Shown: positions 38,461 to 42,495, numbered from the stretch's first letter. The stretch: DNA of 64,000 nt from an uncultured cyanobacterium (GCA_963718615.1 OY970368.1:3616001-3680000); one strand, 5' to 3'. Translations and numbers: made by a program. Notes: generated from the letters alone by a model not told the origin.

Positions 38461-39875
38461 ATTGGCCCTTTTCCGATGCCCAGGTTTTGGATATCCAGTT
38501 TCTCGATGCCCATCAATTGGCTCAGGCCATTCGGACAGGCGAGCTGACGGCGGAAGCGGTGATGGAAGTGACGCTGGCTCAGCTTACCGCCAAAAATCCT
38601 GCCATCAATGCCTTTACCGCAGTGTTAGCAGACTCCGCCTTGGCGGCGGCCCAGGCCGTCGATGCCCAACGAGCCGCAGGGCAAGCGCTCGGCCCCTTGG
38701 CAGGGGTTCCCTTTGGGGTCAAAAACCTGTTTGACGTAGCAGGGCTGCCCACCCTGGCAGGGTCTCAGATTAACGCGGCCAACCCAGGTGCGCTGGAAGA
38801 TGCGACGGCGATCGCCCGTCTCAAGGCAGCAGGCGCGATTTTAGTCGGCACGCTCAATATGGATGAGTATGCCTACGGTTTCGTCACGGAAAATGCCCAC
38901 TTCGGCCCCACCCACAATCCCCATGATTTGAAGTTAATCGCTGGGGGCTCCTCGGGGGGATCGGCGGCGGCGGTCGCGGGAGGGCTGGTGCCCTTGAGCT
39001 TGGGCAGCGATACCAACGGTTCGATTCGGGTTCCGGCGGCACTCTGCGGTATTTTGGGTTTGAAGCCGACCTATGGCCGCTTGTCACGGGCGGGCACGTT
39101 TCCCCTCTCGACGAGTTTGGATCACATTGGGCCGTTTGCCCGGTCGGTTCGGGATTTGGCGCTAATATTTGATCTTTTGCAGGGACCAGACGATCGCGAT
39201 CCGGTCTGTACTGAACGAGATCCTGAAGGGTGTTTAGAGCATTTGGGCAAGGGCCTTGAGGGATTGAGGATAGCCATAGCAACAGATTATTTCCAGCAGG
39301 GCGCGATGCCAGAAGCCCTGGCCGCAGTCCAGCAGGTGGCCCAATCGTTGGGCGTACAACAGGAAGTTATCATCCCCGAAGCAGCCAGCGCTAGGGCCGC
39401 AGCGTTTGTGATTACGGCGAGCGAGGGGGGACAGGTACATCTAGAAAATTTACGGCGCTGTCCCATGGCGTTTGATCCGGCAACGCGCGATCGCTTCCTC
39501 GCAGGGGCTCTGGTGCCCAATGCTTGGTATTTGCAAGCCCAAAAGTTTAGACGCTGGTATGGCGATCGCGTTCACGAGCTGTTCAAAACGGTCGATGTGA
39601 TCATCGCTCCCACAACACCCTGTTTTGCAACCCCCATTGGTCAAGCACTCGTAGAAATTGCAGGCCAAGAAATCGCGGTTCGGCCTCATCTAGGATTGTA
39701 CACACAACCCCTTTCCTTGATTGGTTTGCCGGTGATTTCGGTACCGGTTTGGTTAGAGGGGGCGACCTTGCCGCTGGGGGTACAGTTGATCGGCGCACCC
39801 TATCAGGAGGCCAAGCTGCTCCGGGTTGCCGCTTGGCTGGAGGCGCGGAAAGTGATCGGATACAGACCTGCGTAA
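38454..39875 (+). CDS. AtzE-family amidase (amidase signature)
   Basis: KNLFDV, LNMDEYAYGFVTEN, GGSSGGS and GSDTNGSIRVP. Confidence 0.9.
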   Translation: MLNWPFSDAQVLDIQFLDAHQLAQAIRTGELTAEAVMEVTLAQLTAKNPAINAFTAVLADSALAAAQAVDAQRAAGQALGPLAGVPFGVKNLFDVAGLPTLAGSQINAANPGALEDATAIARLKAAGAILVGTLNMDEYAYGFVTENAHFGPTHNPHDLKLIAGGSSGGSAAAVAGGLVPLSLGSDTNGSIRVPAALCGILGLKPTYGRLSRAGTFPLSTSLDHIGPFARSVRDLALIFDLLQGPDDRDPVCTERDPEGCLEHLGKGLEGLRIAIATDYFQQGAMPEALAAVQQVAQSLGVQQEVIIPEAASARAAAFVITASEGGQVHLENLRRCPMAFDPATRDRFLAGALVPNAWYLQAQKFRRWYGDRVHELFKTVDVIIAPTTPCFATPIGQALVEIAGQEIAVRPHLGLYTQPLSLIGLPVISVPVWLEGATLPLGVQLIGAPYQEAKLLRVAAWLEARKVIGYRPA

Positions 39876-39938
39876 GGGTTTTTAAGGGAGGGTATCTCGC
39901 CGGAAGAAGATGAATCAAATCCTTCCGGCACAACCCTA

Positions 39939-40012
39939 CGAGAATGGCAGGAGTCGAACCTGCAATCTTTGGTTTCGTAGACCAATGTGTTTTCCAATTC
40001 CACTACATTCCC
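39939..40012 (-). tRNA. trnR: tRNA-Arg(ACG), atypical sequence
   Basis: GGGAATG TA GTGG AATTGGAAA ACAC A TTGGT CTACGAA ACCAA AGATT GCAGG TTCGACT CCTGC CATTCTC G forms a complete cloverleaf with anticodon ACG. Confidence 0.85.
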
Positions 40013-40020
40013 AAATTAAA

Positions 40021-40078
40021 AGTACAGCCTAGAACATCGGTTTTGGAGACCGAAGTGTTGTTGTCACACCATCTCTAC
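40021..40078 (-). pseudogene. Decayed tRNA-Trp(CCA)
   Basis: Intact anticodon arm TCGGT-CTCCAAA-ACCGA and D-stem GTGT/ACAC. The T-loop and the 3' acceptor strand are lost. Confidence 0.55.
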
Positions 40079-40223
40079 ATACACTCTGAACAAACTAATA
40101 AAATTCTAAGGTTTCAAGATTCAGGGTTGGATGCGATCGCCACATCCCTCATCGAGGCTAGTTATCAAAATCTTTTGGGCTGGCTTTGAGGTAACTTGCA
40201 TCTCTCTTTGCCTGCCTAAATAT

Positions 40224-40252
40224 ATACTACACAACGTACTACAGAGCGTCAA
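40224..40252 (-). promoter_or_regulatory. Sigma70 promoter with TGTAGTA direct-repeat operator (tRNA unit)
   Basis: TTGACG-17 bp-TAGTAT. TGTAGTA occurs at 40243-40237 and 40231-40225. Confidence 0.75.
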
Positions 40253-40281
40253 GGGGAGCAGTGGAACCGTGCTGAGATTTT

Positions 40282-40692
40282 CTAACCCGATAGAAAGACT
40301 TGAGATTGAGTCATGGCCCAGAGTTTGTGGAGAAGACGCTCGATGCGATCGCTCACCACCGCCAAAAACATCCCCTCATGGGCATCCACATCCGCCGCTA
40401 ACCACACCCCGCGCAAGCAGACTTCGTAGGAGGTCTCATCCACGGGATAAAGGTCAACCCCTGCGGCTAGGCCATCGGGGCAATGCTGGGCCTGCTCCCG
40501 ACAGATTTCGATTTCTAGCGCCGCTAAACCGGGGATATCCCGAGGCAGTAAAAACGACGCACTGCTGGTTTCTACCCGCAGATTTTGTCCGAGTCGTACG
40601 GCTAGCACAGCCCGCTGGGCAACCAGGGTTTCCAGGGAGTCCGCTAGCCGTTCTAACTGCAACTCGCTATCGGCATAGGTCAATTTCAACAT
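40282..40692 (-). CDS. alr0857-family protein
   Basis: MLKLTY..LERL..LE..VAQRAVLAVRLGQ..SASFLLP..EVCLRGVWL..EGMF; AGGAG RBS at 40707-40703. Confidence 0.85.
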   Translation of the reverse strand: MLKLTYADSELQLERLADSLETLVAQRAVLAVRLGQNLRVETSSASFLLPRDIPGLAALEIEICREQAQHCPDGLAAGVDLYPVDETSYEVCLRGVWLAADVDAHEGMFLAVVSDRIERLLHKLWAMTQSQVFLSG

Positions 40693-40713
40693 TATGGATA
40701 AGCTCCTAATACT

Positions 40714-40748
40714 AAAAACCCCCGCTTCTGGTGAGTCAGAAGCGGGGG
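40714..40748 (-). terminator. Attenuator-type intrinsic terminator in front of the alr0857-family gene
   Basis: 12-bp perfect stem CCCCCGCTTCTG / CAGAAGCGGGGG followed by TTTTT. Confidence 0.85.
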
Positions 40749-40769
40749 CAGAAACGCTAAGGTTTCCAG

Positions 40770-41054
40770 TTAACTCAACGTAGCCGGGCTAGGCCAAAGG
40801 GGCTGACGCTGAGATCCGCTTCTGGGGATTTTGAGATGGCGTTCAAGGACGAGAGCTATGAATCTAAAACGATTAATTTGGGTCGCTTTGGGAGCGAGGC
40901 GATCGCTAGACCACTCCATCTCGAATGAGTCCTGTGGGATCGAATTCGGCATGGCACAGCCATAGAAAAGACCCGTGCACAGCGCCTTAAGCACACCCGT
41001 GCCGAGCAGGCGGCAGGTAGGCTGAAGGAAGGTGACGGGTAAACTGCGTTTCAT
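40770..41054 (-). CDS. Putative leader peptide (94 aa)
   Basis: MKRSLPVTFLQPTCRLLGT..FIALVLERHLKIPRSGSQRQPLWPSPATLS; ends 21 nt before the terminator. Confidence 0.6.
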   Translation of the reverse strand: MKRSLPVTFLQPTCRLLGTGVLKALCTGLFYGCAMPNSIPQDSFEMEWSSDRLAPKATQINRFRFIALVLERHLKIPRSGSQRQPLWPSPATLS

Positions 41055-41230
41055 GGCGCGTTGGAAGTTTGAAGGGATTAAAAGACTGAAAAGGGTGATC
41101 AAATAATCAACAAATAATCAATGGGACTGAAGTTTTTCTCTAAAGCTATTGTATCTGGGCTATTTTCCCTAAACTAGCTGTTTTCCCTAAGCCATTAAAA
41201 CAACAGCCCTGGAAAAACTGATTATTCTAG

Positions 41231-41260
41231 ATACTACTCGGATACTACAGGAATTGTCTA
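41231..41260 (-). promoter_or_regulatory. Sigma70 promoter with GTAGTAT direct-repeat operator (leader/alr0857 unit)
   Basis: TAGACA-18 bp-TAGTAT. GTAGTAT occurs at 41248-41242 and 41237-41231. Confidence 0.7.
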
Positions 41261-41472
41261 GCCCTAATTTGTGAAAGTTTTAAGCGGAAGTCTGGCCCAA
41301 GGCCGTCAAATCCGTCGGCAAAAGTCCGGTTAAACGTACCCCCTACCGGTTTGCAGTCGCTTAAACTTAAGATACGCTGGCCTGAGTATCGGTTACGGCA
41401 AAATTTTAATGCGCCGTCGCTGACCCCCTTGGCCCACCCATTACTCACTTATGCGGGAGTAGGATTCGACGA

Positions 41473-42495
41473 ATGGCATCTGAAAAACTTTGGCAACGTT
41501 CTGAGCTCATGGGAACCCAGGTTATCACCCGTGACACGGGAAAACGCCTAGGGGTGGTCGCCGAAATTTTGGTAGATGTCGACCGTCGGGAAGTCATCGC
41601 CCTAGGCTTGCGGGACAATATTTTGTCTCGGGTCGTGCCGGGGGTGCCCCGCTATCTATATTTATCTAGCATCCGTCAGGTCGGGGATGTGGTCTTGGTG
41701 GATTCTGATGAGGCCATTGAGGACATTGATATTAGTCCCTACAGCCTGATGGTCAATAGCGAGGTCATTACGGAATCGGGTGAACCCTTGGGGCGGGTGC
41801 GGGGGTTCCAGTTCAATATCGAGAACGGAACGCTAAAGTCATTGGTGATTGCCTCCCTGGGATTACCCTTTGTGCCAGAGGGGGTTCTAAGTACCTACGA
41901 GTTACCCATTGATGAAATTGTCAGCAGTGGTCCCGATCGCATCATTGTCTTTGAAGGCGCTGAGGAACGGTTGCAGCAAATCACTGTGGGGGTGCTCGAA
42001 CGGTTAGGCATTGGCTCGCCGCCTTGGGAGCGGGATGCCGAAGACAGCTATGTTTTGCCCACAGTTCCAGCGGAAAATCAGTTGGGGACTGGATTACCTA
42101 CCCAAGCTTCTCAACCCCAAACCAATAGTAGCTATGGTCAACAATCCTACGGTAAGCCCTACCGGGCTCCAGCGGATGATTCCTGGGATGATGATAATTG
42201 GGAGCGGGAGCCCGAACCTATTCCCCGCGAACTGCCCCGTCAAGAGCCCCAGCGTCGCTATTTAGAAGCGGAGGCAGAGCCAGAGTCGGGGTGGAGTGAA
42301 GCTTCGGGCAATCGGGAAATCTACACGGATGACTACGGTTATGAGGATGACCCTGCCTACAATCCCCCGGGCCGTCCCGCTGAGCCCCTGGGAGATGCTT
42401 GGGCTGACGACAACTCGGCCTACAAGCCGAAAAAACTGGAGATTCCGGAGAAACAGCCCCAGCCTGAACCCGAATATGAGGATGGTGGTTATTAG
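41473..42495 (+). CDS. PRC-barrel domain protein
   Basis: GTQVITRDTGKRLG and EVITESGEPLGRVRGF; acidic tail. Confidence 0.88.
   Translation: MASEKLWQRSELMGTQVITRDTGKRLGVVAEILVDVDRREVIALGLRDNILSRVVPGVPRYLYLSSIRQVGDVVLVDSDEAIEDIDISPYSLMVNSEVITESGEPLGRVRGFQFNIENGTLKSLVIASLGLPFVPEGVLSTYELPIDEIVSSGPDRIIVFEGAEERLQQITVGVLERLGIGSPPWERDAEDSYVLPTVPAENQLGTGLPTQASQPQTNSSYGQQSYGKPYRAPADDSWDDDNWEREPEPIPRELPRQEPQRRYLEAEAEPESGWSEASGNREIYTDDYGYEDDPAYNPPGRPAEPLGDAWADDNSAYKPKKLEIPEKQPQPEPEYEDGGY

Follow-up and report, generated by a model that had tools for sequence, protein, structure and literature searches.

The locus raises the question of why an intrinsic terminator just ahead of a gene of the alr0857 family has its 3' arm written a second time, in the codons of the open reading frame (ORF) upstream, and whether the two copies compete for one partner. 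It lies in a window of 64,000 nucleotides (the whole stretch of DNA analysed, from an uncultured cyanobacterium), and in the sequence reading all parts of the switch region are on the minus strand (Table 1). The original prediction placed an exact copy of the arm in a 94-aa leader ORF, with a 9-bp alternative pairing to the terminator 5' arm, a terminator 21 nt after the leader stop and, directly beyond it, the AGGAG ribosome-binding site (RBS) of the alr0857-family gene. Each of these points was confirmed at the locus, with the stem starting 20–21 nt after the stop codon.

Table 1. Features of the switch region and its neighbours, with positions counted from the first nucleotide of the window
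Feature	Position	Strand	Remarks
Divergent PRC-barrel protein gene	41473-42495	+	
Promoter-like site, TAGACA-18 nt-TAGTAT	41260-41231	-	9/12 matches
Direct GTAGTAT repeats, two	41248-41242 and 41237-41231	-	Variant of the TrcR-type operator at the same position in other copies
5' untranslated stretch, 120-170 nt	Between promoter-like site and leader ORF	-	
Alternative leader start, TTG	41102	-	110 aa
Leader ORF	41054-40770	-	94 aa; ATG 41054 to TAA 40772-40770
Antiterminator element A, CCAGAAGCGG	40825-40816	-	Exact copy of the terminator 3' arm
P2 hairpin	40774-40813	-	Within the final leader codons; MFE
P3 spacer hairpin, GGAAAC...GUUUCU	40750-40767	-	Lies between leader stop codon and terminator; fold prediction
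Intrinsic terminator, GCCCCCGCTTCTG-ACTCAC-CAGAAGCGGGGGT and T-run	40749-40714	-	
RBS AGGAG of the alr0857-family gene	40707-40703	-	
alr0857-family gene	40692-40282	-	ATG 40692; 136 aa; NCBIfam NF045647
tRNA-Arg(ACG) gene	39938-40013	-	Downstream of the alr0857-family gene

The leader ORF ends in ...KIPRSGSQRQPLWPSPATLS. The terminator stem has 13 pairs (9 G-C) and is closed by a loop of 6 nt and followed by a U-run. The gene downstream matches NCBIfam NF045647 at 134.8 bits (1.5e-39), above the cut-off of 75. The U-run is separated from its ATG by just 21 nt, a gap that includes the RBS, and the gene has no room for a promoter of its own; a promoter scan between terminator and ATG found none. 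The AF2 model of the protein is confident (pLDDT 91.3) and consists of mixed strands and three helices; neither Foldseek (best E 0.033) nor VIA wide (best Z 3.8) gave an informative match to a solved structure. We also considered whether the terminator is bidirectional and serves a plus-strand gene; this was rejected, as nothing converges on the hairpin and the sole plus-strand ORF there is antisense to alr0857.

The sequence CCAGAAGCGG occurs at exactly two sites in the window, 40731-40722 (the 3' arm itself) and 40825-40816, both on the minus strand. The upstream copy forms codons P77-R78-S79-G80 of the leader and is complementary over 9 bp to CCGCUUCUG of the terminator 5' arm (40745-40737). 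Shuffled windows hold 0.28 copies of this sequence per window, with two or more in 4 of 100 shuffles. Across the whole genome, terminator-like hairpins with a perfect stem of at least 9 bp were counted together with any copy of the 3' arm of at least 9 nt lying 10–150 nt upstream; 2 of 97 hairpins have such a copy, and this locus is one of them. Judged on the window and genome sequence, the local evidence against chance is modest, and it is conservation in other genomes that is decisive. A target-site duplication or mobile insert as the source of the two arm copies was rejected because the flanks are conserved across orders and the interior is variable.

By protein homology, an alr0857 gene is present in 21 of 41 genomes. 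At 22 of the 23 loci, a near-identical terminator (CCCCCGCTTCTG...CAGAAGCGGGGG and T-run) stands upstream of alr0857, with a copy of the 3' arm, consensus (C)GAAGCGGGAGGT, approximately 60–70 nt ahead of it. As these loci were picked by protein homology and not by RNA, the recurrence of the element is independent of their selection. At several of the 23, alr0857 is separated from the terminator by a gene for an HNH endonuclease, which is then the first gene after the element. A covariance model (model R1) was built from the 22 sequences (alignment A1). Of the 151 genomes sampled from the class, 71 contain a match to it, as do 49 of the 81 genera; the genome of origin has one full copy, and some others have up to six. 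The analysis below uses 92 full-length copies, 91 of which are included in alignment A3. Beyond the class, a phylum-wide sample gave borderline matches in one other family (2 of 13 genomes; E 2.4e-4 and 5.3e-4) and none in five further families (0 of 82 genomes). A loose DNA pattern scan of genome contigs returned at least 120 stretches, many of them GC-rich chance matches; among the matches listed (80), the model confirms 36 at more than 45 bits, all with cyanobacterial titles. Carriers among the matches listed include Nostoc, Cylindrospermum, Calothrix, Scytonema, Moorena, Microcoleus, Leptolyngbya, Crinalium, Tychonema and Spirulina. Two weak non-cyanobacterial matches (35.0 and 29.3 bits) were taken as chance. 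In Rfam 15, the tRNA alone passes for the region 39500-42000, with nothing else at E up to 1; the best match overlapping the element is anti-hemB (18.1 bits against a gathering threshold of 49.5), and nothing came near threshold at nine other loci. Sequence comparison thus indicates that the locus is one copy of a conserved cyanobacterial element and not a local accident.

The conserved order from 5' to 3' is an AGCGGG(A)GG motif, P2, the ORF stop, P3 and the terminator, and the RBS of the next gene is often located immediately 3' of the terminator. The terminator is paired in 95.4% of cells over the 91 copies, with a near-invariant stem in more than 25 families. P2 shows changes on both sides in 7 of 7 pairs in A3, and in 82 of 91 copies P3 is predicted with a free energy of -3 kcal/mol or below. 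Conservation of A starts abruptly at the A of AGC; the codons upstream carry less than 0.7 bit per position. The third codon positions of A are fixed (C of AGC in 87/90, third G of GGG in 68/90). Both the abrupt onset and the conserved third positions indicate that the constraint on A acts on nucleotides and not on the peptide. The Pro/Arg-rich leader C-terminus described in the original prediction is specific to the lineage of this genome; what the copies have in common is the RNA sequence AGCGGG(A)GG.

Given this anatomy, the hairpin could be the ordinary terminator of a small, fast-evolving gene of the asr0855 type, with constitutive leak-through and an arm copy that has no switching role and is constrained, for example, by an S-G-R motif or by the Shine-Dalgarno (SD)-like GGAGG. 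Public records do annotate such leader ORFs as hypothetical proteins, the motif most often reads S-G-R-(Y/C)-R, GGGAGG is read in 60 of 91 copies, and covariation between A and the 5' arm is weak. This explanation, however, offers no reason why a near-invariant stem should copy an upstream coding segment in more than 25 families or why third codon positions of the motif should be fixed, and it has to accommodate the same element ahead of different gene sets and the rarity of such an arm copy among the terminators of the genome (2/97). We consider it quite unlikely.

A competition between the two copies requires that A pair with the 5' arm. The core of A, AGCGGG (columns 11-16), faces CCCGCU of the 5' arm (columns 125-120), and the six positions are paired in 85/89, 89/89, 87/90, 86/90, 89/90 and 66/90 copies, respectively. 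The core is followed by a conserved mismatch (paired in 6/89) and then by a G-C pair (76/90). Overall, 75.5% of cells are paired compared with 44.5–52.7% when the partners are slid, and 0 of 500 shuffles reach this level. The complementarity, which the original prediction expected to persist in homologues, is therefore present both at 22 of the 23 loci picked by protein and in the 91 aligned copies, and this comparison speaks for the interpretation proposed there. In transcripts ending at the 5' arm, the minimum free energy (MFE) structure holds at least five of the six core A pairs in 77 of 91 copies. The resulting fold is a three-way junction that these pairs close and that contains P2 and P3. 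Once the 3' arm is added, no core A pair is left in 88 of 91 copies and the terminator folds instead. These predicted folds agree with a nascent antiterminator giving way to a full-transcript terminator. At the locus itself, in silico folding keeps the 9-bp antiterminator until 40724 is transcribed and gives the terminator from 40722.

The terminator state is the more stable by a median of 8.4 kcal/mol (9.8 at this locus), and the 5'-most C residues of the terminator stem are free as a toehold in the antiterminator fold. The antiterminator might therefore be displaced quickly unless it is stabilised. Three-way covariation of A, 5' arm and 3' arm over the 91 copies is mixed. At the one variable pair (column 10 with 126), the 27 copies with C126 have G in A in 10 cases and C in 13. 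True compensatory covariation between leader codons and terminator, a check proposed with the original prediction, is sparse because both sequences are almost invariant. No conserved anti-antiterminator (segment 1) was found upstream of A; with 120 nt of upstream sequence, the median pairing probability of the A core is 0.60 compared with 0.54 for a control window. In lacking this segment, the design differs from that of trp-type attenuators.

Frame 0, in which AGC GGG reads Ser-Gly, is open for at least 40 codons upstream in 89 of 92 copies, compared with 15/92 and 7/92 for the other two frames; the three exceptions lack a frame of at least 40 codons upstream of A, and a few ORFs are short (29–47 aa). 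In 91 of 92 copies, frame 0 reaches a stop codon before the stem begins. With the first ATG taken as the start, the leader ORF has a median of 83 codons (range 29–191); the 94 codons of this copy are, as had been remarked, unusually long for an attenuator peptide, and the leaders of the family as a whole are long too. The median distance is 33 nt from A to the stop and 24 nt from the stop to the stem; the latter is 22–28 nt in 67 of 91 copies, and the stop is 4 or 10 nt after P2 in 74 of 91. The conserved open frame and the fixed stop position argue for translation of the leader. Its N-terminal parts are unrelated between families. Within one group of 19 leader sequences, single-base codon differences comprise 1089 synonymous and 1510 non-synonymous cases, and changes per codon position are 94/94/118; the N-terminal part is thus weakly constrained, which is consistent with an ORF that is important more for being translated than for the protein it encodes. 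Pfam and NCBIfam contain no family for this ORF or for ten other leaders, and a six-frame search of 40 relatives with the 94-aa ORF matched its own genome alone. As the leaders are too divergent for protein searches, the element was traced through its RNA.

The conserved frame and stop also bear on a different kind of switch, in which the ribosome does not decide the outcome. Here, either the three-way junction formed by A and the 5' arm or the terminator would be stabilised by another bound factor, which could be a protein, a small molecule, a tRNA (perhaps damaged) or a fragment of one, and the ORF would be secondary. The antiterminator is indeed a compact three-way junction with two conserved hairpins, and since it is approximately 8 kcal/mol weaker than the terminator, it would benefit from being stabilised. 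The genes downstream (RtcB, RNA ligase, HNH) deal with damaged RNA, and the signal that relieves TrcR repression is stated as unknown in the discussion of PMC10272220. Against this, the loops and junctions vary in sequence and length, the alignment contains no aptamer-like conserved core beyond A and the terminator, and no Rfam family matches; the frame (89/92) and the tightly placed stop would be left unexplained. We regard such a factor as unlikely.

Dependence on the ribosome could also take another form, with the opposite polarity or another trigger, namely arrest of the ribosome near the end of the ORF and not a global lag. Candidate triggers are the nascent peptide ...SGR(Y/C)R...P-x-stop, rare Arg codons, and pausing at the SD-like GGAGG. 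The conserved motif lies a median of 11 codons before the leader stop, Pro is often found 2–5 residues before the stop, a stretch of six codons near the leader end contains as many as three for Arg (AGG, CGG, CGA), and the stop is at a fixed distance from the terminator; all of these would suit an arrest site. However, with a ribosome parked on A, the antiterminator would be hidden and termination favoured, and induction by stress does not obviously follow from this. Moreover, the peptide upstream of the motif is not conserved, the copy studied here reads RSGSQRQ and lacks the motif, and the constraint appears to be at the nucleotide level. Arrest therefore seems to us very unlikely.

The genes downstream are of a restricted set. 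In 88 of 92 copies, the element is located upstream of ALR (alr0857), HNH or RtcB genes in varied combinations: ALR alone (40), HNH-ALR (33, plus 2 variants), HNH only (7, plus 1 HNH-HNH), ALR-RtcB (2), RtcB (2, one followed by an RNA ligase) and HNH-RtcB (1), with none of these genes in the remaining 4. The earliest possible start of the first ALR, HNH or RtcB ORF is no more than 40 nt from the end of the element in 45 of these 88 copies. As it precedes different genes of one stress regulon, the element looks like a cis-regulator. Individual copies stand ahead of RtcB (L069), of HNH and RtcB (L075) and of RtcB and RNA ligase (L082). Regulation by a shared leader and terminator links alr0857 and the HNH nuclease to RNA repair. 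The few copies without the usual genes (L028, L058, L078 and L084) are from two multi-copy genomes (G021 and G030), and one of these copies has a PALP enzyme and a hydrolase downstream; they may be remnants or regulators of other genes.

Upstream of most copies, we find TGGACA-N6-TACTACAnnTGTAGTAT, in which -35 and -10 boxes are present together with a palindrome. The strict palindrome pattern, a TrcR-type repeat (ATACTACAnnTGTAnTAC-like) overlapping the -10 box, is present at the promoter of 52 of 92 copies. The promoter at this locus has two direct GTAGTAT repeats in place of the palindrome, an arrangement that it has in common with another copy from the same family (L054). [quoted passage not shown] A divergent RHH-like gene adjoins the leader in 34 loci, as trcR (all0854) adjoins asr0855. 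In the present genome, an RHH-like protein with 58% identity to this divergent gene is encoded outside the window and away from the element (G000:C1:824879-825226, plus strand) and is presumed to be a TrcR homologue. The 5' untranslated stretch of the leader (approximately 41110-41200, minus strand) contains TTAGGGAAAA(C/T)AGC twice, 17 nt apart, in AT-rich surroundings.

The TrcR regulon of Anabaena, comprising a tRNA array, RtcB, HNH nucleases and alr0857, answers impaired translation (PMC10272220, PMC8421152). Deletion of trcR raises asr0855, alr0856 (HNH) and alr0857 7–9-fold, and the genes induced by chloramphenicol include asr0855 and alr0857 (PMC10272220). Kasugamycin, an initiation inhibitor, gave no induction of the TrcR promoter fusions described in the same paper; these fusions report on the promoter and not on the attenuator. 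In PMC2823733, asr0855 is listed as a hypothetical protein of 83 aa. The leader frames have the same median length, and from gene order and size we infer that asr0855 is the leader ORF of Anabaena.

On balance, we lean towards reading the region as a conserved ribosome-dependent transcription attenuator between a TrcR-type stress promoter and its genes. It would be a three-segment design consisting of A, the 5' arm and the 3' arm. The ORF of approximately 80 codons is transcribed first, and near its end it would supply A (AGCGGG core), identical to the 3' arm. If no ribosome is on or near A as the 5' arm emerges, A would capture the 5' arm; this pairing, with P2 and P3, would form the three-way junction, block the terminator and let the polymerase read into the genes. 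As A is made first and captures the 5' arm when no ribosome intervenes, read-through would be the default. A ribosome close behind the polymerase would instead unwind or cover A and P2 on its way to the stop. Positioned at the stop, approximately 24 nt before the stem, it would melt P2 and P3, hold A off the 5' arm and leave the stem uncovered; with A removed, the more stable terminator would form and transcription would end. Since a close ribosome would remove the antiterminator, read-through would rise when translation is slow or loses its coupling to transcription, as with elongation inhibitors or damaged tRNA. The long ORF may integrate the elongation rate over many codons. The sequence comparison shows the anatomy, its conservation, the open frame and, in silico, the two alternative folds; translation of the leader, dependence on the ribosome and this polarity, by which slow translation gives read-through, are what we infer from the observed architecture. 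The chloramphenicol induction of the asr0855-alr0856-alr0857 operon reported in PMC10272220 fits the attenuator, although loss of TrcR repression alone would also explain it. Such an attenuator would explain the near-invariant terminator stem across cyanobacterial orders.

Several known systems resemble the element in part. The trp, his, phe, thr and ilv attenuators of enterobacteria have leader ORFs of 14–30 codons ahead of an intrinsic terminator; the trp type carries a run of regulatory codons for one amino acid and a region 1 (anti-antiterminator), and it controls biosynthetic genes. The element shares with them a leader ORF upstream of the terminator, mutually exclusive antiterminator and terminator pairings and the proposed choice by ribosome position. 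It differs in the length of the ORF (about 80 codons, median 83), in having no run of codons for a single amino acid and in that no segment 1 was found, the antiterminator strand lies inside the coding sequence and the genes are not biosynthetic. In pyrBI of Escherichia coli, the leader has approximately 44 codons and senses the coupling of polymerase and lead ribosome; its ORF extends across the terminator, where a ribosome close behind the polymerase prevents the hairpin from forming and gives read-through. Both have a long leader ORF, and for both the signal (as proposed for the element) is the distance between polymerase and ribosome and not one amino acid. In the element, by contrast, the ORF stops approximately 24 nt before the stem and close coupling is proposed to give termination. 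Antibiotic-responsive, ribosome-mediated attenuators ahead of resistance genes (erm, and ABC-F genes such as vmlR and lmo0919), found by Term-seq, have short upstream ORFs (uORFs) and usually four segments. With these, the element would share read-through of a 5' terminator when translation inhibitors slow the ribosomes on the uORF, and in both the genes assist cells whose translation is impaired; the element differs in being cyanobacterial, with a long ORF, three segments and a repressor-controlled promoter. Set beside these general descriptions, and with no match in Rfam, it would work like a leader-ORF attenuator and is not known to belong to any described family.

Within cyanobacteria, the element and the TrcR regulon of Anabaena PCC 7120 have the same gene set (asr0855-alr0856(HNH)-alr0857, rtcB, HNH), a promoter repeat motif of apparently the same type and, on the Anabaena side, reported chloramphenicol induction (PMC10272220, PMC8421152). 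In contrast, the regulon as set out in the main texts of these papers is controlled by repression at the promoter only; the word 'terminator' occurs 0 times there and a leader switch is not mentioned, their supplements aside. A search of the main texts of PMC12873609, PMC4734099 and PMC12642595 gave no prior description; their supplements might list small RNAs or conserved structures at the locus. A functional parallel is provided by RtcR, the sigma-54 activator of rtcBA in E. coli and Salmonella covered in the discussion of PMC10272220. In both, RNA-repair genes are controlled in response to damage to the translation apparatus; here a repressor and a proposed cis-acting RNA and ORF switch take the place of a sigma-54 activator.

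If the attenuator operates as proposed, the element, placed after the stress promoter and ahead of the genes, is a candidate second layer of control that reads translation directly. Few attenuators are known to respond to ribosome speed, and this would be a further family of them, with an unusually long leader and an antiterminator written in codons; it also gives annotators a reason to treat hypothetical proteins of the asr0855 type as leader frames. We suggest more tentatively, as a possibility that we hold with some doubt, that the element senses translation speed directly for the translational-stress response of cyanobacteria, with the ORF of approximately 80 codons as its ruler: the ribosome on it would either catch up with the polymerase and erase the antiterminator embedded in the codons, or fall short. 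In that case, RNA-repair genes (RtcB, HNH, alr0857) would be gated with no dedicated sensor protein, by a widespread family of ribosome-dependent attenuators for which we found no description in this phylum in the literature searched. Such a sensor would be a candidate for the missing layer of signal input beside TrcR, and the SD-like GGAGG of its antiterminator is possibly held by the 16S rRNA tail of the translating ribosome.

Two further observations concern the genome of origin. The tRNA-Arg(ACG) gene is located approximately 270 nt 3' of the alr0857-family gene on the same strand and could be co-transcribed with it; the leader motif conserved in other genomes is itself rich in Arg codons. 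The second hairpin with an upstream arm copy lies outside the window at G000:C1:2922002-2922030 (plus strand), with a 9-nt copy, CAATGTCCC, at 2921928. This copy is also found in the last codons of the ORF that precedes its terminator, and the C-terminal part of that ORF may resemble a long ribosome hibernation factor.
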